From a bacterium HR37 (lineage in GTDB: Bacteria > Desulfobacterota_D > UBA1144 > Nemesobacterales > CSP1-2): a stretch of 64,000 nucleotides of DNA. Every line of letters starts with the position of its first letter. Positions within the stretch are counted from its first letter, which is position 1. Positions 3,200 to 64,000 of the stretch are shown piece after piece. The DNA is taken from contig BEIN01000014.1 of NCBI GenBank assembly GCA_002898375.1, forward strand, positions 6,712 to 70,711, written 5' to 3'. The position numbers and the translations under genes were made by a program. The notes under the pieces are model-generated. The model saw only the letters and a list, made by a program, of their open reading frames with translations, ran no database searches and was not told the origin of the DNA.

Positions 3200-4007
3200 A
3201 TATTCTTTTTAAATCACTCAGGCAAAGATTAATTGTGGGTGAGTTTAAAGTTAAGCTCCCTTCCCGAAGCCCCAGTAAGTAATCAGAGTACTGTAGTGCG
3301 TGCTTTAGGTTATGAGATGAAAATAAAAGAGTAATACCTTCTTTTCTGGTAAGTTCAACAAACAAGTTCATAACTTCTTCCCCAGTTTTTGGATCAAGAC
3401 TTGCTGCCGGTTCATCTGCAATGATAAGTTCTGGTTCTTGCATAAGAGCCCTTGCAATTGCAACTCTTTGGGATTGCCCTACGGAGAGATTTTCCACACG
3501 GTGTTCTGCAAGGTGGGCCATTCCTACTATATTAAGGTAGTGCATTGCTTTTTCTCTTTCTGTATTAGGCGCTAGGCTGTGAAACCAGGCACGCGGTCCT
3601 CTCCTTTTAGATAAACTTCCTTGAATTACGTTCGAGATTACAGAGAGTTTTGGTATCAAGTTATGTTTTTGAAATACAAAACCTACACGTGTACGTATAT
3701 AATGGAGTTCTCTGTTGTTTGCTCTGGTAATTTCTTTCCCAAATAGGTTGATTTCTCCACTATCGGGTTCGATTAGACGGATACAACAGCGAAGGAGGGT
3801 TGATTTACCAGCACCATTGGGTCCAATCAACGCAAAGACTTTTTTACTAAGCACCGTGAAGCTAACTTTGTTAAGAATCTGTCTGTTGTTGAAGCTCTTG
3901 CTTAATCCTGTTACTGATAAAACAGGTCTTATCTCTTGGTCTATAGAAGTACGGGGTATTTCGTTATTAAGTGTTTTTTTCCTTTTTAGGTTAGCTGTAT
4001 TTGTCAT
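3189..4007 (-). CDS. phnC: phosphonate-type ABC transporter ATP-binding protein (PhnC family)
   Basis: Walker A GPNGAGKST, ABC signature LSVGQSQRVAIARAL, Walker B LIIADEP. Confidence 0.8.
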   Translation of the reverse strand: MTNTANLKRKKTLNNEIPRTSIDQEIRPVLSVTGLSKSFNNRQILNKVSFTVLSKKVFALIGPNGAGKSTLLRCCIRLIEPDSGEINLFGKEITRANNRELHYIRTRVGFVFQKHNLIPKLSVISNVIQGSLSKRRGPRAWFHSLAPNTEREKAMHYLNIVGMAHLAEHRVENLSVGQSQRVAIARALMQEPELIIADEPAASLDPKTGEEVMNLFVELTRKEGITLLFSSHNLKHALQYSDYLLGLREGSLTLNSPTINLCLSDLKRIYDG

Positions 4008-13340: not shown

Positions 13341-13789
13341 TAAGCTTTCCTCGAAAGCGTTGTTTCTCTAAACTTTGTCTCTATTCCAGATGCCTTTAGA
13401 AAAGCCAGGGAACTTTTTACAAAGCTCAGGGAGCGCTCTATAAGAATGCCATTAAATTCGTTTAGCTCCTCTATGCTCTGAAGCATGGAGATCAGCTTTA
13501 ATCTCATATCCTTTAGCGTTTCGTCTCCCGTTAACTCATAGAGTCTCTGTAGGGTTATCTCTTTTGCATCTTTGTCATCTTGTAGAAGCTCTCTAAGAAG
13601 GTTCATGCGTTCGTGCTCAAATAGCCTTAACTTGAGGATAAGAGTATCTTTTTCCTTTGATAGGTTTTCTATTCCGGTTATGTTTAGTTCTATAAGATAG
13701 TCTTTTTCCCTGCGGAGCAGCTCAATAAGCTCACCGTATCCCTTTATTTCTTCATTCAGAATGTTTTTAAGCTTTGTTATGTTGCTCAT
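13340..13789 (-). CDS. flgN: FlgN-like flagellar export chaperone
   Basis: 149 aa helical protein between flgM and flgK (conserved synteny); sequence similarity is weak. Confidence 0.45.
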   Translation of the reverse strand: MSNITKLKNILNEEIKGYGELIELLRREKDYLIELNITGIENLSKEKDTLILKLRLFEHERMNLLRELLQDDKDAKEITLQRLYELTGDETLKDMRLKLISMLQSIEELNEFNGILIERSLSFVKSSLAFLKASGIETKFRETTLSRKA

Positions 13790-14070
13790 ATCTCTCTAAG
13801 AATCTTTTCTGCAATTTTTAAAGAGTCTATTTTGTAATTGCCTGATTCTATTGACTTCTTAATCTCTTCAAGCTTTTCTTTTCTTACTTCCGGTATCTGG
13901 TTGATCAGCGCCATAAGTTCTTTCATCTTTCCTGAAATCTCAACCCTGTCTTTTGCTGCTGTTTCCTCAACATTGCCTGAGGATACCTTATTTTTGACAC
14001 CGGAGCTTTTTTGAACAGTTACCGAGCCGGGTTCATTTGGGGTTGGTGGTTTGTTCCCATATATTTTCAT
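13786..14070 (-). CDS. flgM: anti-sigma-28 factor FlgM
   Basis: 94 aa; DRVEISGKMKEL and C-terminal KIDSLKIAEKILREI match the FlgM family; upstream of flgN-flgK. Confidence 0.65.
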   Translation of the reverse strand: MKIYGNKPPTPNEPGSVTVQKSSGVKNKVSSGNVEETAAKDRVEISGKMKELMALINQIPEVRKEKLEEIKKSIESGNYKIDSLKIAEKILREI

Positions 14071-18327: not shown

Positions 18328-19053
18328 TTAAATACGAGCGATCTCATTATTTACCTTTGCAGATGCTTCATCAAACATCTGAATTGCCTTTTGATAGGTT
18401 TCAAATTCCCTAAGGGTTTCTATCATCTTAAACATTTCCATCACTATATCTACATTTGAGGTCTCCAGATATCCCTGCTTTACTAAAGCGTTTGCTTTTA
18501 CCGGGTTATCATTTGTTGAAAATGCCTCTTCTCCTATCTTGGTAAGGTTATCTTTTTTAGGAAAATCAACGACCTGTATGGAGTCTATCTCTACCCCATC
18601 CACAATCACTGTGCCAGCTTCGTCTATTCGTATATCTCTTCCACGGGGTAACTTTATCGGACCATTCCTTCCAAGAACCTTCTTACCATTGTAGTTTGTA
18701 AGAAACCCTTCTCTGTCTATTCTTAGATCCCCTCTTCTGGTGTATAAGTTACCTTCAAGAGCAATAAAGCCACTTCCCTCAAGTGCTATATCGAGTGGAT
18801 TACCTGTGTAGAAGTTGTTTCCATTTGAGAAGTCAATGCTGTAAGATGATATATGGCTCATAACCCTTCCATCTGCTTTATCGCCTTGGGCTGAAACTAG
18901 GTAGTCTTTAAAAGATATACTTGCTTTTCTGTATCCTGTTGTGTTTACATTAGCCAGGTTCTGGGTGATGATCTCCATCTGTTTTTGCTTTAATACAGCT
19001 CCTGAAAGCGCTATGTATATCCCTTTGTACATCTTACTCTGGGTGGTATGCAA
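18328..19053 (-). CDS. flgF: flagellar basal-body rod protein FlgF
   Basis: ORF-track start is TTG at 19053; the true start is probably ATG ~19032 ([12 protein letters not shown]...[13 protein letters not shown]). Confidence 0.85.
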
Positions 19054-19064
19054 AATAGGTGCCA
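19050..19064 (-). promoter_or_regulatory. sigma54 promoter TGGCAC-CTATT-TTGCA (minus strand) upstream of flgF-flgG-flgA-flgH-flgI-flgJ
   Basis: Forward strand reads GCAAAATAGGTGCCA; perfect -24/-12 consensus with N5 spacing. Confidence 0.6.
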
Positions 19065-19159
19065 GTTTAGATTGGCTGTGTATAGGCGTATGTTGGAGTA
19101 TTTATCTGGGGTAACAAAGGGAAAAAATTACTGTTTGAAGCAATTTTTGCCTGGTGCTC

Positions 19160-19756: not shown

Positions 19757-19772
19757 TGGCACATTTATTGCA
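19757..19772 (+). promoter_or_regulatory. sigma54 promoter TGGCAC-ATTTA-TTGCA upstream of fliK-flgD-flgE
   Basis: Perfect consensus read directly; ends 18 nt before the annotated fliK ATG. Confidence 0.6.
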
Positions 19773-19789: not shown

Positions 19790-21097
19790 ATGCCTGTTAA
19801 TCCCTTTAACTTAATAGGGAAAACATTAGAAGGGCAGCTGGTTAAATTTGCCAGACCAGGTGAGGGTTTTCTAACCCATTATCTGGGAAAAAATGTAAAT
19901 CCAGCGGGAAATAATTTCCCTATGGTTCTAAGTCTGATACTGGGTTCAGAGGATGGCACTTTACCTTTTAAACCTCACTCCAGTGCAGTTGAGAGTGGGA
20001 ATTTGCTTTATGGTATAGAACCTCTATCTGATAGTGATACTGAACCAGGTAATGCAGACCTAAAGGTTGTTAGTGATAAAAACCTATATGATATGGTCGG
20101 TATTATTCTGGCAGTGGTAAAAGATTTGGCTAATTTAATACCGGAGTTTATTTCCGGGAAAGCAGAGAACGGGATTGGTCGGAGTACTGTTCTTAATGCA
20201 TCCTTCTCTAATTCTAAACCTGGTACTCAGGATTCTTTCTACAACCAATTGTATCTGCGTGATTCGGGATACGTGGCTTTTTTAGTAGATGGTAGATCCG
20301 GTGGTACACCAACTGCGGAAGAAAGCAGGGGAGGTGGATACGGTTTTTCTGCATATAAGGATGATTTGCTTCAAAGGATATCGAAAAAGGGTTTTTTCAA
20401 AACCGATCCTATCAGTTTTAATGAGAATCCAGATGATTTTAAAAGCTCCTTTTCTGTTACTGAAAGTGGAGAGGATGTTAAAAACAGAGTGTTTTCTGAG
20501 CCTCTATTAAGGGAGGTTAAGCACCCAGACGTTACCAAGGAAGATAGTTCAAAGCCCGGGCTGGATTACTTAAGAAATGAGCCTGTAGATAGGTTAACTT
20601 CTTTAGATTTTTCAGTTTCTAAGCTGACTTCTTCTGATAATGGTAAACAGGAACCCCTTTTACCCAGTGGGTTACACCATTTCTACTCTGGTTCAAATGG
20701 TAAGGTTGATCTTGGTGATGTTAAAAATTTCTTTTCCGTTGCTAAGAGCGGAAAGGAGTTTATTGTAACCCTCGAGCCCGAGGGGCTTGGAAAGCTAAAT
20801 ATACAACTCAGCATGGATCAAGGTTTTATAAATATAAAGATAAATGTATCAAACGGTGTTGTAAAAGCTTTCATTGAGAACAATATCCACAGCATGGTTG
20901 ATTTGCTTCTTAACGATGGAATAAACATCGGAGGTCTCTCAATTAATATTGGGAACGGTAAAAGGAACTGGGATGAGGGTTATGAGTATAGGGCTTTTAG
21001 AGGGAATATAACCATTCCCGGTGTGGAAAGAGTATATGCATCAGGGACCCAGGGTTTTTATCGTGGTTCCAGTGGGCTTGTAAGTATCTTTGTTTAA
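19790..21097 (+). CDS. fliK: flagellar hook-length control protein
   Basis: 435 aa; C-terminal Flg_hook/T3S4 domain LEPEGLGKLNIQLSMDQGFINIKINVSNGVVKAFIENN; upstream of flgD-flgE. Confidence 0.7.
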   Translation: MPVNPFNLIGKTLEGQLVKFARPGEGFLTHYLGKNVNPAGNNFPMVLSLILGSEDGTLPFKPHSSAVESGNLLYGIEPLSDSDTEPGNADLKVVSDKNLYDMVGIILAVVKDLANLIPEFISGKAENGIGRSTVLNASFSNSKPGTQDSFYNQLYLRDSGYVAFLVDGRSGGTPTAEESRGGGYGFSAYKDDLLQRISKKGFFKTDPISFNENPDDFKSSFSVTESGEDVKNRVFSEPLLREVKHPDVTKEDSSKPGLDYLRNEPVDRLTSLDFSVSKLTSSDNGKQEPLLPSGLHHFYSGSNGKVDLGDVKNFFSVAKSGKEFIVTLEPEGLGKLNIQLSMDQGFINIKINVSNGVVKAFIENNIHSMVDLLLNDGINIGGLSINIGNGKRNWDEGYEYRAFRGNITIPGVERVYASGTQGFYRGSSGLVSIFV

Positions 21098-23159: not shown

Positions 23160-23186
23160 TAAAGTTTTTCTTTTAAGTTCCGATAA
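23160..23186 (+). promoter_or_regulatory. sigma28 promoter TAAAGTTT-N11-TCCGATAA
   Basis: Near-perfect FliA consensus read directly, ~50 nt upstream of the 23234 ORF heading the REC/HD-GYP/motAB gene string. Confidence 0.6.
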
Positions 23187-31129: not shown

Positions 31130-31156
31130 TTATCGGTTTTTTTTTGATAAACTTTA
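31130..31156 (-). promoter_or_regulatory. sigma28 promoter TAAAGTTT-N11-ACCGATAA for fliC, with ~100-nt leader
   Basis: Read from the reverse complement. The leader carries AAGGGAGG and the SD AAGGAGG. Confidence 0.7.
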
Positions 31157-31163
31157 ATTACGA

Positions 31164-32417
31164 ATGGTAGATTTTAAGGCTACGGGTTTAAATACCAGCT
31201 TCCTCATAATAAAGAGTGCTTCTAAGAGGGGATTGGTTTTAAAACCGGGGGAGATTGTAAAAGGAAAAATTGTAGAGGTATCACCTCTGGGTGATGTGTT
31301 GTTAAAGATAAAGGGAACCCTTGTTAAAGCCAAAGCGAAGCTAAATTTAGAAAAGGGGTTAGAGGGTCTTTTTAAGGTTTTAGATACTGGGGTGGATAAC
31401 ACCACCCTAAAGCTTCAGTTTGTTGAGTATTCTGGGAAAAAGATATATCCGGATTACAGTAGTGAACTCAGAGGTGATCTGGAGAAGTTAGTTAAAAGCC
31501 TGGGTGTGGTTATTAAGAAAGAAGGGATCAGTGCTACAGAGGTAAGAGGAATCTATTTTGATTTATTAAAAGCCCTACATTCTAATGCTGATACCCTATC
31601 GGACCCACTCCGTTTTGATCTGATACATCTTCTCCGGAGTTTTTTGAAATCTGATGGGCAAGGTGTAAGTGAAAGGCTTGGGATTTTTAAAGACCGAATT
31701 CCGGCTCCTTTAAAAGAGTTTATCCCTTATGGAATCTTTATTGATGAGGTAATGGAGGGAGAAAGGGAAGAAGTTTTGGGACTAAGAAAGGCTCTGCAGA
31801 ATAGTGGTGTTGCTCTTGAAGCTAAGTTAAGGCTTTTCCTTAAGCAAATTGAGAAGAAAGAAAAACAGGATATCAGGGAACTGGAAAGTTCCCTTTTAAA
31901 GGAAGATATGAAACTTAGTCTGCTCAAGATAAAAGAGCTTTTGGAAGAGGGGGCGGGTGCAAGAGAAGGGATTAGAGATAAAGGGATTCTGGAGCAGGCT
32001 AATACCCTTCTTAAGGATATAGAGACCTATCAGATACTCTCAAAGGTTACAGATTCACTTTATACGTTCTTGCCTCTAACCTGGAGGGGATTTAAGGACG
32101 TCGATATAATGCTAAAAAAAACTGGGATTGGCTGTAAAGACCAGCTTTATGTCTGCAGAATCCAATTCGATACTGAGAGGTTGGGAAATCTAACAGCTAC
32201 GGTTCTTATGTATAGAGATGGTTTCTTTGTGGTGTTTAAAACAAAAAGCCCTTTATTCTTGAAGTTGCTGAATCTTTATGTAAATGAGTTGGAGGAAGCG
32301 TTTAGAAGTAAAGGGCTTAGCTTAAAAGTGGTAAGGATCTTGGATGCTGATGAAAGCAGCTCTGATGAGCTGGATTATTCCCTATCTTTTAGGAATATGG
32401 TGGATATCAAGGTATGA
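31164..32417 (+). CDS. FliK-like protein (C-terminal Flg_hook/T3S4-like domain), paralog of the hook-length control protein
   Basis: 417 aa; C-terminal [53 protein letters not shown] follows the FliK C-terminal domain pattern; translationally coupled to the downstream FlhB-C-like gene. Confidence 0.45.
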
Positions 32418-39120: not shown

Positions 39121-39135
39121 TGCAATTTTCATGCC
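39121..39135 (-). promoter_or_regulatory. sigma54 promoter GGCATG-AAAA-TTGCA upstream of flgB-flgC-fliE-fliF-fliG-fliH-fliI-fliJ
   Basis: Forward strand reads TGCAATTTTCATGCC in the 47-nt gap between the response-regulator stop and the flgB start. Confidence 0.6.
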
Positions 39136-39152
39136 TGTTTTTTTACCCCTTC

Positions 39153-40550
39153 TTATACGTTACGTTCTACAATTTTTTCTTCTTCCGGAAAATTTTTCCC
39201 GTATTTTTTCAGCTTGTTTCTTATGGTTCTAACACTTATTCCAAGGATTCTTGCTGCTTTCGCTTTATTACCGCCTACCTCCTTGAGGGTTTTAAGTATT
39301 AACTCCCTTTCCATGCTCTCTATTTTTCCATTTGAAAAAAGGGTACTTTGTGTTTCATCCTCTAGCAGGAGTTCTTTTTCCGTTATTCTCTCACCTTTAC
39401 ATAAAAATACAGCTCTTTGTATAACGTTTTCAAGCTCTCTTACATTGCCTCTCCACTGCCTGTTTATAAGGGTTTGCATTGCCTCTTCCGAAAAGCCCTC
39501 TATTTTTTTCCCGGAGATGAGAGAGAATCTCTTCAGAAAGTGCATGGCAAGAACCGGAATATCCTCTTTCCTTTCTCTTAAAGGCGGTATCTTTAAAGGA
39601 AACACGCTCAATCTGTAGTAAAGGTCTTCTCTGAACTTTCCTTCCCTACATTCTTTATAGAGGTCTTTGTTTGTTGTGGCTATTATTCTTACATCTACCG
39701 GTATGGGTTCTCTTCCCCCTATGCGGTCTATCTCTTTTTCTTGAAGTGCTCTAAGAAGCTTTGCCTGTATGCTTGTTGGTATCTCCCCTATCTCGTCAAG
39801 AAGGAGTGTTCCCCCATTGGCAAGCTCAAATTTTCCCTTTTTCTTCTCTTGTGCTCCTGTGAAAGCTCCCTTCTCGTATCCAAAAAGTTCGGATTCAAGC
39901 AGGTTCTCAGGTATAGCAGCGCAGTTTATGGCTATAAACGCTTTATCTGACCTCTTGCTCATTCTGTGGATAAACCTTGCAAGAAGCTCTTTCCCGGTTC
40001 CACTTTCCCCATATATCAAAACTGTTATATCACTTAGGGCAAGTTCCCTGGCAAGGTTTATGATCTTTTTCATCTCGGCATTCTCTGTGATTATCTCTCT
40101 TTCCGTAATTATACGTTTCTGAAGTGAGTCTAGGGTCTTTGCAAGAGTTTCCAGTGAGAAGGGCTTTAGCAGGTACTCGGTGGCTCCCTGTTTTATCGAT
40201 TCAACCGCATTCTCAATTGTTCCAAAGGCGGTTATAACCAGTATTGGAATACCACCGAAATTCTGTCGTATCTCCTTAATAAGGGTAAGCCCATCCATAT
40301 GTGGCATTTTCATATCCGTTATAACTGCGGAAAAGCTTGTTTGCTTGAGCTTAGAAATAGCATCTTCACCCCCGGAGGAAACAATGGCTCTGTAGCCAAG
40401 CTTTTCTACTGCTTCTTTAAGCGCTAACCTCATTTGAAGTTCATCATCCACTATGAGAATCGGTTTGGTGTTTTTAAGTCTCATAAAGTCCCTCCGTGTG
40501 TTTGGAATTAGGGAAGTAGAGGCTGAACTGAGTGCCTTCCCCCTCTTCAC
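39153..40550 (-). CDS. sigma54-dependent response regulator (NtrC family; FlgR/FleR-like flagellar activator)
   Basis: REC (ILIVDDE...VITDMKMPHMDG) + AAA sigma54-activator domain (GESGTGKELLARFIH, GAFTGA) + C-terminal Fis-type HTH. The ORF-track start (GTG 40550) overlaps the kinase; ATG for MRLKNTKP ~40484 is the probable start. Confidence 0.8.
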   Translation of the reverse strand: MKRGKALSSASTSLIPNTRRDFMRLKNTKPILIVDDELQMRLALKEAVEKLGYRAIVSSGGEDAISKLKQTSFSAVITDMKMPHMDGLTLIKEIRQNFGGIPILVITAFGTIENAVESIKQGATEYLLKPFSLETLAKTLDSLQKRIITEREIITENAEMKKIINLARELALSDITVLIYGESGTGKELLARFIHRMSKRSDKAFIAINCAAIPENLLESELFGYEKGAFTGAQEKKKGKFELANGGTLLLDEIGEIPTSIQAKLLRALQEKEIDRIGGREPIPVDVRIIATTNKDLYKECREGKFREDLYYRLSVFPLKIPPLRERKEDIPVLAMHFLKRFSLISGKKIEGFSEEAMQTLINRQWRGNVRELENVIQRAVFLCKGERITEKELLLEDETQSTLFSNGKIESMERELILKTLKEVGGNKAKAARILGISVRTIRNKLKKYGKNFPEEEKIVERNV

Positions 40551-43436: not shown

Positions 43437-43490
43437 GGTCAGTTATTATATAAAGCAACAAACATGCCAAATGGGTTTGCAGGAGGGAGC

Positions 43491-44912
43491 CTATTCGTTC
43501 TCGGTATTTTCCTGGTCTAATCCCATTCTCTTTAGTTTCTCTATAAGGGTTGTCCTTTTTATACCCAATAGCTTTGCAGCTTTACTTTTTGTTCCCTTTG
43601 CTTTTTTTAGGGCTCTTAGTATCAGGGCTTTCTCTATCCTGTAAAGGGTTTTCTCAAGATTGATTTCATCTTTACCCTGTAGAAGGTAGTGTTCGAACTC
43701 CTCTCTTTCCGTTATTCTAAGACTCTCAGGGGATTGGGATCTGGTAAGGAACCTCTCCGGTAGGTCGGAAACATTAACCCTATTTCCCCTTACAAGGATC
43801 ATAAGGCTTTCTACAAGGTTCCTCAGTTCCCTTACATTACCAGGCCAGCTATAGTTCATAAGATGTTCCATTGCTTCTGCTGTAAACTCAAAAGGGTTCC
43901 TTTTCATCTTTTTTGAGAACTCGTTTATATAGTAATCAAGAAGCAATGGAATGTCCTCTCGGCGTTCCCTTAGAGGGGGTATGTGGATCTGAACCACATT
44001 TAGCCTGTAAAATAGGTCATCTCTGAATTTCCCTATCCTTGTCAGTTCTTCGAGATCCCGGTTTGTTGCAGCTATTATTCTTACATCTACTTTTATCGTT
44101 TTAATCCCTCCAACCCTTTCAAATTCCTTTTCCTGAATTGCCCTTAACAGCTTTGCCTGAAGGGAAGGTTCTAGATCCCCTATCTCATCTAGAAACAGAG
44201 TTCCATGGTTGGCAAGTTCAAAACGACCTATACGTGTACTGAAGGCTCCTGTAAACGCTCCCTTTTCGTGTCCAAAGAGTTCTGACTCTAGGAGGCTGGC
44301 GGGGATTGCGGCACAGTTTACAGGTATAAAGGGTTTTTGTGCCCTTGGGCTATTAAAGTGTATGGTTCTTGCAATTAGCTCCTTTCCTGTTCCGCTCTCC
44401 CCAGTAATAAGCACAGTACAGTCAGTATCAGATATCTTCTCTATCAACTCGTATAGTTTTAACATCTTTGGAGAGATGCCTATAAGGCCTTTGAAGCTGT
44501 ATTTCTTCCTTAGTTCCTCTCTGAGTATGGCATTTTCCCTTTTAAGCCTGGAAACCTCTATTGCCCTGTTAATGGTTATTATAAGCTCATCCACGTTAAA
44601 AGGTTTGGTTACGTAATCAAAAGCCCCAAGCTTCATGGCCTCAACTGCGGTGTCTACACTGGCAAAGGCTGTAACCACTATGACGGGAACATCTATCTTT
44701 GATGCAGATATCTCTTTTAACACATCCAGACCGCTGATTCCACAGGGCATAACCAGGTCTGTTAACACAAGATGGAATTTCTCCTTCCTTAACAGCTCAA
44801 GGCCTTGGGCCCCACTGTAGGTTGCTGCAACTTCGAAACCACGCTCTTTTAAAACCAGTGAGATGTAATCTGCAAGGGTCTGGTCATCTTCGATAATCAG
44901 GATTCTTTGCAT
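43491..44912 (-). CDS. second sigma54-dependent response regulator (NtrC family; FleQ/FlrA-like position)
   Basis: REC with an intact phospho-Asp context (ILIIEDDQT...LVLTDLVMPCGISG...VTKPF) + GESGTGKELIARTIH/GAFTGA + C-terminal HTH. Confidence 0.8.
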   Translation of the reverse strand: MQRILIIEDDQTLADYISLVLKERGFEVAATYSGAQGLELLRKEKFHLVLTDLVMPCGISGLDVLKEISASKIDVPVIVVTAFASVDTAVEAMKLGAFDYVTKPFNVDELIITINRAIEVSRLKRENAILREELRKKYSFKGLIGISPKMLKLYELIEKISDTDCTVLITGESGTGKELIARTIHFNSPRAQKPFIPVNCAAIPASLLESELFGHEKGAFTGAFSTRIGRFELANHGTLFLDEIGDLEPSLQAKLLRAIQEKEFERVGGIKTIKVDVRIIAATNRDLEELTRIGKFRDDLFYRLNVVQIHIPPLRERREDIPLLLDYYINEFSKKMKRNPFEFTAEAMEHLMNYSWPGNVRELRNLVESLMILVRGNRVNVSDLPERFLTRSQSPESLRITEREEFEHYLLQGKDEINLEKTLYRIEKALILRALKKAKGTKSKAAKLLGIKRTTLIEKLKRMGLDQENTENE

Positions 44913-53915: not shown

Positions 53916-53931
53916 TGGCATGATCCTTGCA
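53916..53931 (+). promoter_or_regulatory. sigma54 promoter TGGCAT-GATCC-TTGCA upstream of fliA and the che genes
   Basis: Perfect consensus read directly. The fliA ATG at 53952 is only ~20 nt away; GTG at ~53973 preceded by the SD-like GAGGGGAAAG is a plausible true start. Confidence 0.55.
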
Positions 53932-53951: not shown

Positions 53952-54719
53952 ATGTTGAGGGGAAAGACAGATGTGAAGCCTTTAGCCAGTTTGGACCTAG
54001 GGTATAAGAGGGAATTGGGTGAGGAGGAGAAGGAAAAGATAATAAGGGATTTTCTCCCTTTTATAAAGTACACAGCCTATAGGCTTGCATGGAGACTCCC
54101 ACCCCAACTTTCGGTAGAGGATCTTATAAGTGCCGGGATTGTAGGGCTTTTGGAGGCTCTTCAAAGGTATAAAGAGGGAGTGGCAAGGCTCAGTACCTTT
54201 GTAGAATCAAGGATAAGGGGAGCAATGCTTGATGAGCTTAGGTCTCAGAGTTGGATACCAAAGTCTATGAAAGAAAAAATCAGTGCGGTTAAGAAAACCT
54301 ATCTGGAGCTTGAATCAAAACTTGGCCGTCCACCAGAAGCAGAAGAGGTTGCTAAAAAGCTTAATATTTCGGTTGATGAGTACTATAAGATACTTCAGAG
54401 TGCAAATATGGAAGTGGTACTGAATTTTGAAAGTTTTAAGGAAAAAAACAGAAACGAAGAAAGCGTGGATCTGCTTGAGTATATTTGCGATCCTGATGCT
54501 AAAACCCCTCTTTCCGTATTAGAGGAGAGTCAGGTTAGGGAGGCAATTGCAAAAGTTATAGAAGAACTTCCTGAAAAAGAGAAGCTTGTTCTTTCACTTT
54601 ACTACTGGGAAGAGATGACCATGAAGGAGATAGGGAAGATTTTAAATATTACGGAGAGCAGGGTTTCGCAGCTACACAATCAGGCACTTTTAAGACTTAA
54701 AGCAAAACTCAATTTGTAG
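53952..54719 (+). CDS. fliA: RNA polymerase sigma factor sigma28
   Basis: 255 aa; sigma70 region 2 and region 4 HTH (MTMKEIGKILNITESRVSQLHNQALLRLK). Confidence 0.85.
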   Translation: MLRGKTDVKPLASLDLGYKRELGEEEKEKIIRDFLPFIKYTAYRLAWRLPPQLSVEDLISAGIVGLLEALQRYKEGVARLSTFVESRIRGAMLDELRSQSWIPKSMKEKISAVKKTYLELESKLGRPPEAEEVAKKLNISVDEYYKILQSANMEVVLNFESFKEKNRNEESVDLLEYICDPDAKTPLSVLEESQVREAIAKVIEELPEKEKLVLSLYYWEEMTMKEIGKILNITESRVSQLHNQALLRLKAKLNL

Positions 54720-56149
54720 TGGGTTTACCGCTCATGCAATTAAGTAGGCTTTTAAAGTTAATTGAAGAACTTTCCCACCCGGATCCTTTAAAAAGATACC
54801 GGGCTGCGGAGGCACTGGGACACGGGGATGAAAGGGCAATTTATCCCTTGATAAAGGCGTTACGTGATAGAGATCGGGGTGTCCAGGATGCAGCTATGCG
54901 TTCCCTTATATCCATAGGTGGTGAGGTCACAGCGTATATGGTGTTGCCACTTTTAAGAGATGAGCCATCGTTAATAAGTATGGCTATCGTAATACTGAAG
55001 GGCATAGGAACTGTGTCACTGCCCCTACTTCGTTCTCTTTTAAAGGATAAAGATGACACTGTCCGTCAACTTGCACTTTATCTTATCTCCGAGATCAAAG
55101 TATGCGATTATCCAGAGGATATTGTAAGGATCCTTGAAACGGATCCCAGTCCGAATGTTAGGGCATCTGCTGCACGTGTTCTCGGTGTTATTAAGTATAA
55201 AGAGGCCCTGCCCCAATTGGTTAACGCTTTAAGCGATAGTGAGTGGGTTTGCTTCTCAGCTCTTGAATCCATTGCCTTAATGGGAGATGAATCCTCTGCT
55301 GGGTTTATTGTTCCCCTTCTAAACAGTAAATCAGAGGCTATAAGGTGTGCTGCTGTTGAGGTACTGAGCAGGATAGGGGGAAAGGTATCTGTTAATGCAC
55401 TATTAAAGCACCTATCAAAAGCAGAGGGATTTGAAAAGAAAAACGTTGTAAAAAGCATGATTAAGATGGGAATATGTCCTGCTGTACCAGGGGTCTCTGA
55501 TGTGCTTATTGATATGCTAAGAAGTGGTGATTGGGGGGAGAAGATAACAGCTATAGAGAAGCTAATTGATCTTGGAGAAAAAGATGCAGTTTATCATATT
55601 GTGGACCTGGCAGGTTCACTTGATCCATCTGAGCCGGGAAATGAGGAGAGGATCTCTACCATTAAGGATCTTCTTTGTCGTTTTGGCTGTATAAGTGTTT
55701 TTGTAGATATAATTGCGGACCCATCTTTTAAATTCAGAGGAAAAACAATTGCAATTGATGTTATCAGAAGGCTTAGGTGCAGGGAAGCTATTCCTTCTCT
55801 CATGCAACTACTGGATACGGATATAAGGGATATAAGGCGGGCAAGTATGGAGGCTTTAGGAGATATGGGTTGTTACGGAGCAAAATCAGCAATGATTAAG
55901 GCGCTGGAGGATTTTGATGGCGGTGTAAGAAGATCTGCAGTTTTGGCTTTAGGGAAGCTAAAGGATAAGGGGGCTTTCGAACCGATTCTTAATCTGTTGT
56001 CCAGGGAGAAGAATCCAGAGGTAGTTGAGGAGGCAATTAAATCTCTTCTTGCAATAGATTCAGAAAGGTTCTTATTCTGCCTAAGTAGGCTGGATCCTGT
56101 ACTCAGAGAAATCGTTACTCGTTACAAAGAGCAACTGGAATGGGTATAG
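54719..56149 (+). CDS. HEAT-repeat (PBS-lyase type) protein embedded in the fliA-che operon
   Basis: 476 aa of ~14 tandem HEAT_EZ-like repeats (xxVRxxAAxALGxIGx). GTG start overlaps the fliA stop; ATG at ~54734 is an alternative start. Confidence 0.6.
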   Translation: MGLPLMQLSRLLKLIEELSHPDPLKRYRAAEALGHGDERAIYPLIKALRDRDRGVQDAAMRSLISIGGEVTAYMVLPLLRDEPSLISMAIVILKGIGTVSLPLLRSLLKDKDDTVRQLALYLISEIKVCDYPEDIVRILETDPSPNVRASAARVLGVIKYKEALPQLVNALSDSEWVCFSALESIALMGDESSAGFIVPLLNSKSEAIRCAAVEVLSRIGGKVSVNALLKHLSKAEGFEKKNVVKSMIKMGICPAVPGVSDVLIDMLRSGDWGEKITAIEKLIDLGEKDAVYHIVDLAGSLDPSEPGNEERISTIKDLLCRFGCISVFVDIIADPSFKFRGKTIAIDVIRRLRCREAIPSLMQLLDTDIRDIRRASMEALGDMGCYGAKSAMIKALEDFDGGVRRSAVLALGKLKDKGAFEPILNLLSREKNPEVVEEAIKSLLAIDSERFLFCLSRLDPVLREIVTRYKEQLEWV

Positions 56150-57745: not shown

Positions 57746-59413
57746 ATGTCCGGTGAGATGGAGGAAGTGGTAACAGAGTTTATACTGGAGTCAAAAGAAT
57801 CGTTAGATAAGCTGGACTCTCTCTTTGTTGAATTTGAGGAGAAGGGATACGATAAAGCTATAGTCAATGAGATTTTCAGGATAGTCCATACTATTAAGGG
57901 TGCAGCTGGTTTTCTTGGATTTAAATCCATAGTGGATATATCTCACGGGGCAGAAAATATCTTAAAAAAGCTAAGGGATGGTGAGATCCCGCCTACAGAT
58001 AGGCTGATTGATGTACTCCTTAAAAGCACCGATAAACTTAGGGTTCTTATTAACCACATTGAAACAGGGAATAGTTTTAACGAGGATGTTGGTGAGTTGG
58101 TAAAAGAGCTTGAGGATTCCCTTAAGGAAGCACAATCAAAAGGGCAGAAGATGGTTCGGTCAGAATCTGCTCTGGAAGCCGAAAATCAGGTGCCGATAGA
58201 TTATGAGAAAGCGGTTTTTGAGAGAAGAGAGAGAGTCCAGACACTAAGGGTTGATGTGGAGAGGCTAAATGAGGTAATGGATCTTACGGGGGAGGCAGTT
58301 TTAATAAGAAACAGGCTTTTAAATATTGCAGGTTACTTTGAGAGAAAGTTTGCAGACGATCCGTATGTAAAGGGTTTCCTTGAAGCGGTCTCATCTCTTA
58401 ACCTTGTAACCTCTGATATGCAGATTGCTGTTATGAAAATGAGGATGCAGCCAATAAGCAGGGTTTTTAACAAATTCCCCCGCCTTGTAAGGGATATATC
58501 TAAATCACTCGGGAAAGAGGTTGAACTTAGGATTTCAGGAGAAAACACAGAAGTTGATAAATCGGTTATTGAGGAGATAGATGACCCCCTTGTTCATCTT
58601 ATGCGAAACGCAATAGACCATGGCATAGAAACCCCTGAGGAAAGAAGGGCAAAGGGTAAACATGAAAAAGGTATTATTTCCATAAATGCCTTTCAAAGGG
58701 GAAAACAGATTATTATAGAGATCTCGGATGATGGTAGAGGACTGGATGTGGAGAGGATAAAGGGAAAGGCAATCGAAAAGGGAATTATAACCGAGGATGA
58801 GGCACAAAGGATGTCGGAGGATCTGGCTATAAACCTTATCTTTACGCCAGGCTTTTCTACGGTTGATGTTTCTACCGAGTTTAGCGGACGTGGTGTTGGA
58901 ATGGATGTTGTTAAAACAGCCGTCTCTAAGCTAAATGGGTATATAGAGGTTTTTTCGAGAAAGGATAAGGGGACAACATTTAGAATAAGCATTCCCCTTA
59001 CCCTTGCAATAATTCAGGCCATAATAGTGCGGTCTATGGGGGTTCAGTATGCTATTCCTCTAAGCTCGGTTGAGGGGCTCTTAAAGTTGGGTTCCAGCGA
59101 TGTAAGAAAAGTATCAGGAAAGAGAATGCTTTGCGTACGTGAGAAAACCCTTCCGCTTTTTGACCTCTCAGCTCTACTGGGTTTTGGGTGTGGTGAGGGA
59201 ATACAATGTGAATACGGTGTTGTTATCGCGGTAGGGGAAAGACGGTTTTGTATTTCTGTGGATGAGCTCCTTGGACTTGAGGAGATTGTGGTTAAACCAA
59301 TTACTGGCTTGGATGTATCATCTTCCTACGTTGTCGGAGCAACAATAACTGGAGATGGAAGTGTTGTGCTTATTCTTGACCCATCGGGAATTGCAAGGGG
59401 TATTTTTGGATGA
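57746..59413 (+). CDS. cheA: chemotaxis histidine kinase
   Basis: 555 aa; Hpt (HTIKGAAGFLGF), dimerisation and HATPase domains (N box DHGIE, G1 DDGRGLD, G2 GRGVGMD), C-terminal CheW-like domain. Confidence 0.9.
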   Translation: MSGEMEEVVTEFILESKESLDKLDSLFVEFEEKGYDKAIVNEIFRIVHTIKGAAGFLGFKSIVDISHGAENILKKLRDGEIPPTDRLIDVLLKSTDKLRVLINHIETGNSFNEDVGELVKELEDSLKEAQSKGQKMVRSESALEAENQVPIDYEKAVFERRERVQTLRVDVERLNEVMDLTGEAVLIRNRLLNIAGYFERKFADDPYVKGFLEAVSSLNLVTSDMQIAVMKMRMQPISRVFNKFPRLVRDISKSLGKEVELRISGENTEVDKSVIEEIDDPLVHLMRNAIDHGIETPEERRAKGKHEKGIISINAFQRGKQIIIEISDDGRGLDVERIKGKAIEKGIITEDEAQRMSEDLAINLIFTPGFSTVDVSTEFSGRGVGMDVVKTAVSKLNGYIEVFSRKDKGTTFRISIPLTLAIIQAIIVRSMGVQYAIPLSSVEGLLKLGSSDVRKVSGKRMLCVREKTLPLFDLSALLGFGCGEGIQCEYGVVIAVGERRFCISVDELLGLEEIVVKPITGLDVSSSYVVGATITGDGSVVLILDPSGIARGIFG

Positions 59414-60648
59414 GTGCAATATCAAAGGAGGAAATCATGGAGCAGTATATTGGATTTTATCTCGACCAAAATGAGTATATGATTCCTGTATTAAATGTAC
59501 GGGAGATTATAAATATGCCCCCTATAACAAGGATTCCCCTGGCTCCTGCCTATATCGAAGGGGTTACAAACTTGAGAGGAGTTGTGGTTCCTTTGGTTAA
59601 TCTCAAAAAGCTTATGGGATTGAAGGGGATGGAAAAGAATGAGGCGGTAGGTTATGAATTGGGTAATAAGGTTATCATAATAACTCATGGAGGCATGCTT
59701 TTTGGTGTGGTTGTAGATAAGGTAAGCGGTATAATAAGTGTGGAGGAATCAAGTATTGAAGCAACAGAGAGTGTTTTCCACAGCTCTTTAGAGCAAGCTG
59801 AGGGTATAGTTAAACTTAAAGACCGGGTTGCTGTTTTGCTTGATACAAAGAGGTTGCTTCCCGAAGGAGAGCTGGAGGTGTTTGAGGATCTTCTGGTTTC
59901 TTTTAAGGAAAGAGAAGATGGGAAGGTTGAGTTAACCAAAAAAGTTCAGACGATGGGTGGAGAAATTACGGTTAAGGAGCTTAAGGATGCAAGGGATTTC
60001 TTTGAAAAAAGGAAAGCGGACTCTGGTGATCCAAGATATATGGTTCTTGATGATATAGTGGATTTTATAAATGCCCTTGCTGAATGTGACTATGATAGAG
60101 CGGATAGGGTTATTCAGAACATGATAAAGAAGGGACAGGATGAACTTTTTAGTGAGATAGGGAAAATAACAAGGAAACTTCATGATACTATTAAGAGCTT
60201 TAAACAGGCTATTGATCCAAAGATAAAGGAAGTGGCGATGAGAGAGATACCTAGTACAATCGAGTCACTTGAGTTTGTTATTGAGAAATCAGAAGAAGCT
60301 GCAAATAAAACAATGAGCATAGTTGAGAAGTATATACTGGGTATGGATGATCTTGATACCCATATAAAGAGGCTTAGCGGACCGGAAGTATCGGTAGAGT
60401 ACCTAAAGAACTTTAAAAATAACCTGGAGGATGACCTGATTGAAGTGCTTACAACTCAGTCCTTTCAGGATATAACGGGACAGCTTATAAAGAAGGTAAT
60501 AAAGCTTATAGGGGATATAGAAGAGGAACTTGTAAGGCTTATAAAGAACTTTGGTGAAAGGGTGGAGGTGGGCTATAGAACTGAGGCAACTTCCCAGAAG
60601 ATAACCCAGGCCGATGTTGATGAGCTTTTAAGAGAGTTTGGGTTCTAA
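59410..60648 (+). CDS. CheW-like domain fused to a CheZ-like CheY-P phosphatase domain
   Basis: N-terminal ~150 aa CheW fold (YIGFYLDQNEYMIPVLNVREII...GVTNLRGVVVPLVNL). C-terminal region has the CheZ catalytic motif TQSFQDITGQLIKKVIKLI and a CheZ-like C-terminal CheY-docking helix ADVDELLREFGF. Probable start at the internal ATG ~59437 after AGGAGG. Confidence 0.7.
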   Translation: MSAISKEEIMEQYIGFYLDQNEYMIPVLNVREIINMPPITRIPLAPAYIEGVTNLRGVVVPLVNLKKLMGLKGMEKNEAVGYELGNKVIIITHGGMLFGVVVDKVSGIISVEESSIEATESVFHSSLEQAEGIVKLKDRVAVLLDTKRLLPEGELEVFEDLLVSFKEREDGKVELTKKVQTMGGEITVKELKDARDFFEKRKADSGDPRYMVLDDIVDFINALAECDYDRADRVIQNMIKKGQDELFSEIGKITRKLHDTIKSFKQAIDPKIKEVAMREIPSTIESLEFVIEKSEEAANKTMSIVEKYILGMDDLDTHIKRLSGPEVSVEYLKNFKNNLEDDLIEVLTTQSFQDITGQLIKKVIKLIGDIEEELVRLIKNFGERVEVGYRTEATSQKITQADVDELLREFGF

Positions 60649-60653
60649 AGAAG

Positions 60654-61688
60654 ATGATAAGGGTTCTTATAGTTGATGACTCAGCATTTATGAGAAATGC
60701 CCTAAAGACCATGCTTTCTTCCGATCCCGAGATCGAGATTGTAGGTGTTGCACGGGATGGAGTAGAAGCAATAGAGAAGGTTATGAGTTTAAACCCTGAT
60801 ATAGTGACAATGGATGTAGAAATGCCCAGAATGGATGGTCTTACAGCACTAAAACGTATTATGGAGATAAAACCCGTTCCGGTAATTATCGTAAGTTCTC
60901 TGACGTCTGAGGGAGCAAAGGTTACACTTGATGCCCTTGATATCGGTGCTGTGGATTTCATCCCCAAAAACCTATCCGAGCTTTCAGTAGATATTGTGAA
61001 GTTAAAAGAATTGCTTATTGAGAAGGTGAAAAAAGTTGCCGGGAGAAAAAATATAAGAAAAAGGGTAAGTCCCTTTCCTTATAAATCAAACGAGGTTAAC
61101 AGGGCTCACCTAACCTCAAGTAGAAAAATAGGGGTCGTTGCTATAGGAACCTCAACAGGAGGTCCAAGGGCACTTCAGGAGATCATCCCAAAACTGCCAA
61201 AGAACTTTCCGGTTCCAATTGTAATTGCCCAGCATATGCCTGCAACCTTTACCGGACCCTTTGCCGAAAGACTAAACCAGATAAGTCAGATTACAGTTAA
61301 AGAAGCTGAGGATGGAGAGGTCTTGAAACAAGGGGTTGCTTTTATCGCACCGGGAAGGGGGCATATGAGACTGCGAAAAAGGGGTATAGAAACCGTTATC
61401 TCCATAACAAGTGATGATGAGTATATATACCGCCCATCGGTTGATCTTCTTATGACCTCAGTTGCAGAGTGTTTTCCGGGAAAGGCCCTTGGTGTGATAC
61501 TTACCGGTATGGGAAATGACGGTCTTAAGGGTATTTCTGCCTTAAGAGAAAGTGGGGGAAAGGTGATTGCACAGAATGAGGAGACGTGTGTGGTATATGG
61601 AATGCCAAAGGCAGTGGTTGAGGCAGGATTGGCGGATAAGGTTTTACCTCTGGAAGATATAGCTGGTGAGATAGTGAGTTCTCTCTAA
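60654..61688 (+). CDS. cheB: chemotaxis methylesterase/deamidase
   Basis: REC (ILIVDDSAFMR...VTMDVEMPRMDG) + CheB catalytic domain (VAIGTSTGGPRAL...). Confidence 0.9.
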   Translation: MIRVLIVDDSAFMRNALKTMLSSDPEIEIVGVARDGVEAIEKVMSLNPDIVTMDVEMPRMDGLTALKRIMEIKPVPVIIVSSLTSEGAKVTLDALDIGAVDFIPKNLSELSVDIVKLKELLIEKVKKVAGRKNIRKRVSPFPYKSNEVNRAHLTSSRKIGVVAIGTSTGGPRALQEIIPKLPKNFPVPIVIAQHMPATFTGPFAERLNQISQITVKEAEDGEVLKQGVAFIAPGRGHMRLRKRGIETVISITSDDEYIYRPSVDLLMTSVAECFPGKALGVILTGMGNDGLKGISALRESGGKVIAQNEETCVVYGMPKAVVEAGLADKVLPLEDIAGEIVSSL

Positions 61689-61694
61689 TTACCC

Positions 61695-61721
61695 TAAAGT
61701 TTCCCGTTATAAAACCGATAA
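61695..61721 (+). promoter_or_regulatory. sigma28 promoter TAAAGTTT-N11-ACCGATAA downstream of cheB
   Basis: Read directly: CCTAAAGTTTCCCGTTATAAAACCGATAAT. Confidence 0.5.
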
Positions 61722-61856
61722 TATAAAGGGAAAACCTTATGGATATGGTGTGTACTCTGATGGTTTCCTCGATCTCAAGCAGGAAAAAAATGCCTTATCT
61801 GTTAAGGTTTTTCCTTCTTCATCCCCAGATTTATGCGTTTTTGATACCAGTTAATG

Positions 61857-61872
61857 TGGCACCGTTTTTGCA
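61857..61872 (+). promoter_or_regulatory. sigma54 promoter TGGCAC-CGTTT-TTGCA upstream of the MCP gene
   Basis: Perfect consensus; followed by SD GGAGG and the ATG at 61909. Confidence 0.6.
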
Positions 61873-61908
61873 TAAAAAACCAGATGTACCCCTTGGAGGT
61901 TTTGGGAT

Positions 61909-63537
61909 ATGGACTTCTTTAGGAATGTAAATACTCGATCGAAACTCATTATGTGTTTTGCTGTTTTGATGGTGGTTATTTTAATTCCGGGTGCAATGAA
62001 TCTATATCAACTTATGTCTATGAAAGAATCAATACAGATGATATATAAAGACCGGTTAATACCACTTGTTGATCTTGGTGAAATAAGTTATGAACTTTCA
62101 AATCTAAGAATAGGAGCTCTACAGATTGTAGGTGAGCCTGATGAATCTAAAAGAAGGGCTATATTTGAGAGGGCTAAAAACAGTGTAGTAAAAATTGAAA
62201 AGCTTATTGAGAAGATCAGCAGAACAAACCTTGTACCCGAGGAGAAAAAGGTATTAGATGAGCTTATTGTGGCATGGAACAGCTACAATATATCAAGACA
62301 GAATACCTACAATTTGGCAATTGAAGGAAAGCTTGAAGAGGCAAGACAAAATGCCCAGACGGATGCAGCAGTTAAGTTCAAAAGCGTTGCAGAGAAGATT
62401 CAAAGATTGATTCAGATACAAGATGAGGTTACCAAATCTGTATATGAGGAAGCCTCTAAGAGCTATGTGTCTTCAAGAAATACAATAATAGGGCTAGGTA
62501 CTTTTGCAGTTGTAATAGCATCTGCCTTTGTGCTGGTTCTTACAAAACTCATAGCAAATCCCCTTGCTGATTTTACCAATATAGCTAACAGAATAGCAAA
62601 TGGTGAGCTTGATGTAACGATTGAATCAAGAGGAAGAGATGAGATAGGACAGTTATCCGGTGCCATGAAAAAGATGTTAGAGAATCTAAAGGAGATTATA
62701 GGAGGTATAAAGTCGTCTGCTGACAACCTTGCTTCTGCAAGTCAGCAACTTTCGGCAAGTTCAGAGCAGATGTCAAAGGGAATTGCACAGCAGGTGAGCA
62801 AAGCATCTCAGATTGCAACATCCTCAACTGAGATGTCTCAGAGCATAGTTGATATAGCAAAGAATGCTTCAGATATGGCTTCATTTGCTACTGAGGCTGT
62901 AAGGGTAGCACGTGAAGGGGAGAGAGAAGTTAGTAAATCCATAGAGGAGGTTAATGCAATAGCAAGTGTGGTGAACGAATCTTCGGGTCTTATAGTATCT
63001 CTTGGTAGCCGTTCAAGGCAGATAAGTGAAATAGTAACCGTAATAAAAGACATTGCTGATCAGACAAATCTTCTTGCTCTAAACGCTGCGATTGAGGCTG
63101 CAAGGGCTGGAGAGCAGGGAAGGGGGTTTGCCGTGGTTGCAGATGAGGTACGAAAACTTGCTGAGAGAACCACAAAGGCAACACAGGAAATAGAGGGGAT
63201 GATAAAGACCATTCAGGGTGATGTGGACAGAGCCGTTTCATCCATGGAGGGTGCAACAAAGAAGGTTGAAAAGGGGGTTGAGCTTTCAAAAAAAGCAGGC
63301 AAAGCCCTACAAGATATAGTAAACAGCGTTACCAATCTTCAGTCAATGGTTCAGCAGATAGCTTCTGCAACTGAGGAGATGTCAGCTGTATCCGAGCAGA
63401 TAACTCAGGATATAGAAATGATTGCCGGTGTTACAAATGAAACATCTTCAAATGCTACCCAGATATCTCAGGCATCGGCTGATTTGGCAAGGCTTGCAGC
63501 TAGCCTTGAGGGTATGGTTTCACAGTTTAGGATTTAG
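61909..63537 (+). CDS. methyl-accepting chemotaxis protein with periplasmic sensor region, HAMP and MCP signalling domain
   Basis: 542 aa; TM1 near residue 15, TM2 near residue 200, HAMP, highly conserved hairpin tip [35 protein letters not shown]. Confidence 0.9.
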
Positions 63538-63558: not shown

Positions 63559-64000
63559 ATGAGGTTGAATTCGGATGTACTACAGCTTGTAACGTTTAGA
63601 CTCGGGGAAGAAGAATATGCTATAGATATTCTAAAGGTTCAGGAAATTATAAGAATGGTTGAAGTAACACCAATTCCAAATGCTCCATATGTTGTTGAGG
63701 GTGTTATTAACCTTAGGGGAAGAGTTATACCCGTAGTAAACTTAAGAAAAAAGTTTGGAGTACAGGGGGATTGCAGTACCGCTCAGTCAAAGATTATAGT
63801 GGTAGATATAGGTATAATCTGTGGTCTCATCGTTGATACTGTTTCAGAGGTGTTAAGACTTCCTCTAGATAGCGTAGAACCCCCTCCTTCTTTTGCAAAT
63901 AATGCTGGTTCTAGGGCTATAAAAGGGATTGGAAAATTAGACGACAGGCTCCTAATACTCCTTGAGGTATCCAGGCTTTTTGAGAACTCTGAGTTGAACA
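63559..64000 (+). CDS. cheW: chemotaxis coupling protein CheW (3' end beyond the window)
   Basis: Hand translation from ATG 63559 after GGAGGGG: MRLNSDVLQLVTFRLGEEEYAIDILKVQEIIRMVEVTPIPNAPYVVEGVINLRGRVIPVVNLRKKFG... No stop before the window end, so it is absent from the ORF track. Confidence 0.8.
   Translation, partial: MRLNSDVLQLVTFRLGEEEYAIDILKVQEIIRMVEVTPIPNAPYVVEGVINLRGRVIPVVNLRKKFGVQGDCSTAQSKIIVVDIGIICGLIVDTVSEVLRLPLDSVEPPPSFANNAGSRAIKGIGKLDDRLLILLEVSRLFENSELN

Follow-up and report, generated by a model that had tools for sequence, protein, structure and literature searches.

Tandem sigma28- and sigma54-type promoter motifs precede a chemoreceptor gene in the flagellar supercluster of bacterium HR37

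We analyzed a 64-kb stretch of DNA (hereafter, the window; all coordinates are positions in this full stretch) from "bacterium HR37," a metagenome-assembled genome (MAG) of an uncultured member of the Thermodesulfovibrionales from a hot environment. Within it, the 220-nucleotide (nt) spacer at 61689–61908, between cheB and a gene for a methyl-accepting chemotaxis protein (MCP), contains a sigma28 (FliA)-type promoter motif and, 135 nt from the end of its -10 element to the -24 element, a sigma54-type promoter motif, both in intergenic DNA and on the strand of the MCP gene. A preliminary description had read these as a consensus sigma28 promoter and a perfect sigma54 promoter, from which the receptor gene could be expressed at two different tiers of the flagellar hierarchy. 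Both motifs were confirmed and lie far above chance expectation, and the limits it gave for the spacer, the two promoters, the gap between them, and a 63-codon open reading frame (ORF) proved exact to the base. The two-tier reading itself gained in silico support from the exact sigma28 consensus, the conservation of both sites, and the presence of fliA, flgM, and two sigma54 activator genes in the window. We place the probability that both promoters work as inputs within the flagellar hierarchy at roughly 0.6.

Neither spacer motif is a chance match. The sigma28 motif TAAAGTTT-N12-CCGATAA (at most one mismatch) occurred three times in the window, compared with 0.00 expected from 100 dinucleotide-preserving shuffles, and the exact sigma54 motif TGGCAC-N5-TTGCA also occurred three times, compared with 0.03 expected. 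Sites of the sigma28 type were defined by a -35 element TAAA(GTTT) and a -10 element (G)CCGATAA, with 11 nt between octamers. The MCP site has all of these features and departs from the Escherichia coli consensus only at the first base of the -10 element, a position that is also variable in the window's two other exact-consensus sites; its sequence is the exact local consensus common to the flagellin and motAB-operon promoters. Sites of the sigma54 type were defined by a GG and a GC dinucleotide at a 10-nt distance in TGGCAC-N5-TTGCA, and the MCP site, TGGCACCGTTTTTGCA, matches the consensus at 11 of 11 positions. Transcripts are predicted to start near 61728–61731 from the sigma28 promoter and near 61883 from the sigma54 promoter.

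Elsewhere in the window, both motif types occur almost exclusively ahead of flagellar genes, a placement that marks them as real regulon markers in the HR37 genome. We found eight sigma54-type sites with intact GG and GC and at most two mismatches. Six of the eight were intergenic and correctly oriented, and all six precede flagellar or chemotaxis genes (Table 1). Within the window, the MCP gene alone has both types of site in the spacer that belongs to it. As a separate observation, the weaker sigma28-type site upstream of flgM would give flgM-flgN-flgK-flgL an internal sigma28 promoter within the sigma54-driven flgF operon, a nested logic like that at the MCP gene.

Comparison with related loci and contigs (designated by L-numbers) showed that both sites are retained among very close strains, which are represented by three metagenome contigs, L081 and L082 (MCP 97% identical) and L096 (cheB ~99% identical). 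Of the 220 spacer positions, 2 and 8 differ between these contigs and the window, the higher number being that of L096, in which all eight substitutions fall within 61702–61835 and none within 61836–61908, the part that holds the sigma54 promoter and its short leader. The exact local sigma28 consensus is retained in three of the four strains. In these three contigs, as in the more distant locus L002, the sigma28 site lies 5–6 nt past the cheB stop codon. A 12-nt inverted repeat, TTTCCCGTTATA / TATAAAGGGAAA (61700–61711 / 61722–61733), flanks the sigma28 -10 element; it is probably not significant, and two of its pairs are broken in L096.

The sigma54 promoter is kept in MCP orthologues at 72%–83% protein identity. 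The same place before the MCP start is occupied by TGGCACCGTTTTTGCA in L096, by TGGCATTATTTTTGCA in L097 (MCP 72% identical), and by TGGCATTATTTCTGCA in L098 (MCP 76% identical), the last two being short contigs that end before cheB and the sigma28 position. The Shine-Dalgarno sequence TTGGAGGT is kept in all three contigs and the ATG in L097 and L098 as well, and an upstream block at 61782–61814 reads GGAAAAAAATGCCTTATCTGTTAAGGTTTTTCC in the window and GGAAAAAATTGCCTTACATGTAAGATTTTTCC in L098. Between these kept blocks, the sequence of L097 and L098 has diverged, and conserved blocks within diverged sequence are the pattern expected of functional elements.

The more distant locus L002 (MCP 63% identical) has the same cheB–MCP junction, with a spacer of 60 nt, a perfect TAAAGTTT-N11-GCCGATAA 5 nt past the cheB stop, and no sigma54 site in that spacer. 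Because L002 has the sigma28 promoter without the sigma54 module, the module looks like a lineage-specific addition. A sigma28-type site (at most two mismatches) was present within 450 nt after cheB in ~8 of 52 Nitrospirota cheB loci. Together, these comparisons make the sigma28 promoter after cheB probably ancestral for the receptor gene and the ~165-nt sigma54 module of activator site, promoter, and Shine-Dalgarno sequence an apparent gain of the HR37 lineage. At 61741–61748 and 61905–61912, an 8-nt direct repeat, GGATATGG, brackets 164 nt in which both the activator site and the sigma54 promoter lie. The start context of the 63-codon ORF, GGGAA-N6-ATGGA, resembles that of the L002 MCP gene, GGGAG-N9-ATGGA. 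The repeat and the start context are weak signs that DNA was inserted at a former start codon; L081 and L082 lack the repeat and have GGATATTG.

This history bears on whether a single promoter is in use, either because the sigma28 site is a decaying relic replaced by the sigma54 module or because the sigma54 site is silent. The module, with a short leader and Shine-Dalgarno sequence of its own, stands between the old promoter and the gene, the sigma28-only state works in L002 with a 60-nt spacer, and L096 has a T-to-C change in the sigma28 -35 element. However, the sigma28 site retains in three of four strains the exact consensus of the flagellin and motAB type, a sigma54 promoter conserved at 72%–76% MCP identity is not silent junk, and there is no terminator between the two promoters. 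We regard the use of a single promoter as unlikely.

Other comparisons were set aside. A blastn search with the spacer against the window and all loci gave nothing beyond 11–20-nt chance words, and the spacer was rejected as a repeated or mobile element. Distant MCP relatives (L099, L101, and L102; 52%–56% identity) have a different cheW-MCP context and were rejected. A sigma54-like site in L099, TGGTACACATCTTGCA (1682–1760, upstream of the cheW-MCP pair), was unconvincing, with a (CAGA)n microsatellite and a terminator-like hairpin directly after it. We also noted that the C-terminus of the MCP is replaced in L096 (~3220–3839, compared with ~63190–63537 of the window) and lengthened by a CZB zinc-binding domain. 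At window position ~63190, nucleotide identity falls from ~97% to ~50%, a drop that suggests a recombination event involving the second MCP-CZB gene, which in L081 comes after cheW.

Sequence upstream of the sigma54 promoters may point to a shared activator. At flgF, the only short-range inverted repeat upstream of the sigma54 promoter is GGCAAAAATTGCT-N6-AGTAATTTTTTCC (19151–19120), and it has the same ends and the same 32–33-nt span as a palindrome upstream of the MCP promoter (Table 1). Four flgF orthologues (61%–68% identity) all have GGnAAA...TTTTTCC palindromes after the stop codon of the DUF6115 gene and a sigma54 promoter ~33 nt before the ATG, and some of these palindromes are the compact 13-mer GGAAA-N3-TTTCC. 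Searching the window for GGMAAWWWTTKCC (at most one mismatch) gave four matches, namely those at flgF and the MCP gene and two exact ones at 19907–19919 and 39187–39199. The latter, GGAAAAATTTTCC, falls within the FlrC-like gene at its 3' end, 50 nt upstream of the flgB promoter, a sigma54 promoter that was noticed only through this search. Relative to the -24 start, the palindromes lie at -87 and -68 (flgF), -63 (flgB), and -75 (MCP), and at +150 for fliK. None was found near the TGGCAT-type promoters of fliA and flrBC.

The real support for the motif is the two independent exact matches adjoining flagellar sigma54 promoters. Because a 13-nt palindrome stands at a similar distance upstream of the flgB and flgF promoters, we read the MCP palindrome as a predicted activator-binding site, and because it is common to those promoters, we provisionally place the MCP sigma54 promoter in the flagellar sigma54 regulon. 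Promoters with the palindrome may form the FlrC/FleR class and those without it the FlrA/FleQ class, and we propose GGAAA-N3-TTTCC as a candidate binding motif of the middle-class activator. The CCCCAGAT(W)4 and ATAAATACTCCA words shared with the flgF and fliK upstream regions were rejected, as they are not above chance and the first is altered in L081. In L104 (~930–1100) and L106 (~1150–1450), G+C-rich repeat-like inserts lie between the conserved palindrome and the flgF sigma54 promoter and shift the presumed activator site 270–370 nt from that promoter.

A type of palindrome and a distance (-63 to -87) shared with the flgB and flgF promoters, together with its absence at fliA and flrBC, make it distinctly unlikely that the MCP sigma54 promoter answers a non-flagellar activator, such as a nutrient- or stress-responsive NtrC-type protein encoded elsewhere, which would tie the receptor to an environmental signal. 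This alternative draws on the need of sigma54 promoters for a specific activator when part of the genome is visible, and on the post hoc definition and non-significant count of the palindrome. The lack of a sigma54 site at other Nitrospirota cheB–MCP junctions also suggests a lineage-specific adaptation.

Together, the motifs and gene content suggest how the receptor gene might be wired. The gene run fliA-HEAT-cheR-cheY-cheY-cheA-cheW/Z-cheB closes with cheB, and the MCP gene and cheW, separated by 22 nt from stop to start, are probably co-transcribed. This MCP-cheW unit would have two dedicated flagellar-regulon promoters in tandem. The distal promoter would be of the late class and FliA (sigma28) dependent, like those of flagellin and motAB, with a leader of ~180 nt; the proximal one would depend on sigma54, with a leader of ~26 nt and the palindrome ~75 nt upstream of its -24 element. 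In the proposed cascade, sigma54 with the first activator would drive flrBC and fliA. Sigma54 with the FlrC-like activator would drive the genes for rod and hook as well as MCP-cheW, the latter from the proximal promoter and probably as a middle-class unit. Sigma28 would fire the distal promoter after the release of FlgM. The receptor would be made from basal-body building onward, and its production would continue after FlgM release. At the motif level, fliA lies behind a sigma54 site and both site types stand at the receptor gene, and this arrangement would form a coherent feed-forward loop, in which the two inputs would presumably add, as in OR logic. No terminator-like site was found between cheB and the MCP gene, so read-through from the sigma54-driven fliA-che operon is a possible third input.

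Several observations weigh against a receptor gene with two working flagellar inputs. A good sigma54 site after cheB was found in none of 52 other Nitrospirota cheB loci, and the tandem pair is documented only in strains that are ~96%–99% identical in the region, with L097 and L098 stopping short of the sigma28 site. The -35 change in L096 (TTT to TTC, at 61702) alters the distal promoter, and another L096 substitution, at 61806, affects the palindrome in its right half. The motif itself was chosen post hoc, and its count of 4, compared with 2.2 expected, is not significant alone. A Smith-Waterman comparison of the MCP and flgF upstream regions gave a score of 24 compared with a background of 27–31 and was no outlier; whole-region similarity was dropped for this reason and the short palindrome alone was retained. 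No rpoN gene was found among the window ORFs scanned, a search whose scope was the window; the presence of rpoN in the genome is implied by the two sigma54 activators. Finally, the sigma28 transcript must cross the activator site and bound sigma54 holoenzyme, an arrangement in which one input may hinder the other and the two need not add up.

Taken further, such interference would make the sigma54 module, inserted between the ancestral sigma28 promoter and the start codon, a gate with AND-like logic and not simple OR. Elongation of the sigma28 transcript would be blocked or throttled by activator at its positions +54 to +86 and by closed-complex holoenzyme at ~+130, and the leftover upstream ORF, from the apparent old start codon, would run ribosomes over the MCP ribosome-binding site. 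If this were true, the middle-class regulator and its state would still govern receptor output during the late phase. We consider a gate very unlikely and favor two inputs that each contribute to expression.

The 63-codon ORF downstream of the sigma28 promoter is most likely non-coding. It had been described beforehand as lacking a ribosome-binding site and as probably just leader RNA. The first statement holds in part, as AAGGGAA is present at 61726–61732, 6–13 nt before the ATG, but overlaps the predicted sigma28 start. The second was borne out by substitutions among the three near-identical strains, which were 2 synonymous to 6 non-synonymous in the ORF, compared with control ratios of 8:1 for cheB and of 33:16 or 28:10 for the MCP gene, and by a homologue search in Pfam that gave no match. 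The corresponding codon comparison for cheB of L096 is invalid, as a frameshift in the contig distorts it. Of the marks expected of a small protein gene, the ORF lacks purifying selection and a Pfam homologue, and its one Shine-Dalgarno-like sequence stands at the predicted 5' end of the transcript.

These results also bear on whether the 180-nt stretch from the sigma28 promoter to the MCP gene is a regulatory leader (a riboswitch, an attenuator, or a translated upstream ORF), with the sigma54 match incidental. Such a long leader exists on the sigma28 transcript only, a 14-nt inverted repeat (61726–61739 / 61803–61816) could form a long hairpin that is the longest predicted helix, and the ORF runs over the MCP Shine-Dalgarno sequence and start codon. 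However, an Rfam search of the spacer found no family (the best match had an E-value of 4, far below the gathering score), the 202-nt leader folded no better than shuffled sequence (z = -0.61), and the L096 substitutions at 61728 and 61806 break the longest helix without compensation. A riboswitch or leader RNA was rejected on these three grounds. With mostly non-synonymous changes in the ORF and an exact sigma54 consensus expected 0.03 times per window, we consider a regulatory leader of any kind highly improbable.

Table 1. Features of the cheB–MCP region, promoters, regulators, and gene groups of the HR37 window.
Feature	Position	Strand	Details
cheB	60654–61688	+	Pfam Response_reg and CheB_methylest; stop codon 61686–61688
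sigma28 (FliA)-type promoter	61695–61721	+	-35 TAAAGTTT 61695–61702; N11; -10 ACCGATAA 61714–61721
63-codon ORF	61739–61930	+	overlaps activator site, sigma54 promoter, and MCP start
candidate activator-binding palindrome GGAAAAAAATGCC...TAAGGTTTTTCC	61782–61814	+	begins 75 nt upstream of the -24 element
sigma54-type promoter TGGCACCGTTTTTGCA	61857–61872	+	TGGCAC 61857–61862, CGTTT, TTGCA 61868–61872
Shine-Dalgarno GGAGG of MCP gene	61895–61899	+	from sequence
MCP gene	61909–63537	+	ATG at 61909; 542 amino acids; Pfam 4HB_MCP (four-helix-bundle sensor), HAMP, MCPsignal
cheW	63560–64000	+	cut by window end; orthologous L081 ORF matches Pfam CheW
sigma54 promoter	19049–19064	-	before flgF-flgG-flgA-flgH-flgI-flgJ; palindrome at 19120–19151
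sigma54 promoter	19757–19772	+	before fliK-flgD-flgE; exact palindrome 19907–19919, downstream of promoter
sigma54-type promoter AGGCATGAAAATTGCA	39121–39136	-	directly before flgB-flgC-fliE
sigma54-type promoter TGGCATGTTTGTTGCT	43454–43469	-	before TPR-flrB-flrC operon; no 13-mer palindrome nearby
sigma54-type promoter TGGCATGATCCTTGCA	53916–53931	+	20 nt before fliA
sigma28 promoter	31130–31156	-	before flagellin gene; exact local consensus
sigma28 promoter	23160–23186	+	before response regulator / HD-GYP / motA / motB; exact local consensus
weaker sigma28-type site TAAAGAAT-N11-TCCGATAA	14107–14133	-	upstream of flgM, inside flgJ 3' end
fliA (sigma28)	53952–54719	+	Pfam Sigma70 r2, r3, r4; follows flhF, flhG
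flgM (anti-sigma28)	13786–14070	-	identified in window
FlrC/FleR-like response regulator, sigma54 activator	39153–40550	-	REC, AAA+ (Sigma54_activat) with GAFTGA, HTH_8; adjoins PAS histidine kinase
second sigma54 activator, FlrA/FleQ-like by position	43491–44912	-	REC, AAA+ (Sigma54_activat) with GAFTGA, HTH_8
flgL-flgK-flgN-flgM; flgJ-I-H-A-G-F; DUF6115 gene		-	
fliK-flgD-flgE; two response regulators (one with HD-GYP); motAB		+	
fliS-fliD-flaG-flagellin		-	
FleQ/FlrA-like activator, TPR protein, PAS histidine kinase, FlrC-like activator, flgB(?), flgC, fliE-F-G-H-I-J		-	
fliL-M-N...P-Q-R, flhB, flhA, flhF, flhG, fliA, HEAT-repeat, cheR, two cheY-like		+	
cheA, CheW-CheZ fusion, cheB, MCP, cheW		+	downstream of cheY-like genes

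The window as a whole is a single large flagellar and chemotaxis supercluster. Its MCP matches an NCBI protein of "bacterium HR37" at 100% identity, an exact look-up of the MCP in the assembly index gave no match, and the nearest cheB genes in species-representative genomes, at 60%–73% identity, belong to Nitrospirota/Thermodesulfovibrionales MAGs. Three genes of the supercluster stood out apart from the promoters. The CheW and CheZ phosphatase domains are joined in one protein of 412 amino acids (59410–60648, plus strand), and the same fusion is present in L101 (1–386). A HEAT-repeat protein of 476 amino acids (54719–56149, plus strand) is encoded between fliA and cheR, with a 1-base overlap with the fliA stop. 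A second FliK-like gene with a Flg_hook domain (31164–32417, plus strand) is divergent from the flagellin gene and recalls the FliA-dependent fliK2 of Pseudomonas putida.

The resulting promoter map is testable and describes an uncultured Thermodesulfovibrionales lineage, in a group that has had no prior study of flagellar regulation. It suggests that a sigma54-to-sigma28 cascade of the Vibrio/Pseudomonas type, nested and dual promoters included, operates in Nitrospirota. The receptor gene is likely to have been rewired recently, by gaining a middle-class promoter on top of a late-class one, and if this is true, this receptor and its CheW would be made earlier than other late genes. Current concepts of flagellar gene control are unchanged by these results.

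In Vibrio cholerae, rod and hook genes belong to the FlrC- and sigma54-dependent Class III, and flagellins, stators, and MCPs to the sigma28-dependent Class IV (PMC6504787). HR37 resembles the four-tier hierarchy of V. cholerae and Pseudomonas aeruginosa (FlrA/FleQ, FlrBC/FleSR, FliA) in its two sigma54 activators, PAS histidine kinase, and flgM. As in Vibrio and Pseudomonas, fliA follows flhA-flhF-flhG, sigma54 sites stand before rod, hook, fliK, and fliA genes, and sigma28 sites stand before flagellin, motAB, and MCP genes. Unlike these systems, HR37 belongs to the phylum Nitrospirota and has one MCP gene that combines a Class III-like with a Class IV-like promoter, to which activators are assigned only by analogy. 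A survey of sigma54 regulons mentions neither Nitrospirota nor chemotaxis (PMC12316311).

A close parallel in gene order is P. putida, where sigma54-driven chemotaxis transcription is boosted by an internal FliA promoter in a feed-forward loop (10.1101/2021.08.29.457346). HR37 shares a near-identical order flhA-flhF-flhG-fliA-che..., and dual sigma54/sigma28 logic is also suggested at its flgM and motAB operon. The FliA promoter of P. putida is internal, with the sigma54 promoter far upstream, whereas in HR37 sigma28 comes first and sigma54 second within one 220-nt spacer of a receptor gene.

The activator of Helicobacter pylori, FlgR, has no DNA-binding domain. For the "intermediate class" genes of this species, dual sigma54/sigma28 input has been proposed as a feed-forward loop with OR logic (PMC2883586). 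Unlike the HR37 chemoreceptor, these are structural and accessory flagellar genes, and no tandem pair in one spacer is described for them (PMC2883586). In Rhodobacter sphaeroides, some receptor and che genes depend on sigma54 and others on sigma28, and two promoters, sigma70 and sigma28, serve cheOp2 (PMC7277832); separate receptors there use separate sigma factors, with no single receptor reported to have both. Xanthomonas fliTX (PMC5550985) was rejected as a parallel, as it involves a cascade through FliA and not tandem promoters. Dual sigma54/sigma28 input is already known from P. putida and H. pylori, and HR37 is a new example and not a new mechanism. HR37 stands apart in its phylum, in the order of the two promoters and how closely they lie in one spacer, in that both are dedicated to a receptor gene, and in a sigma54 module that was apparently gained recently.

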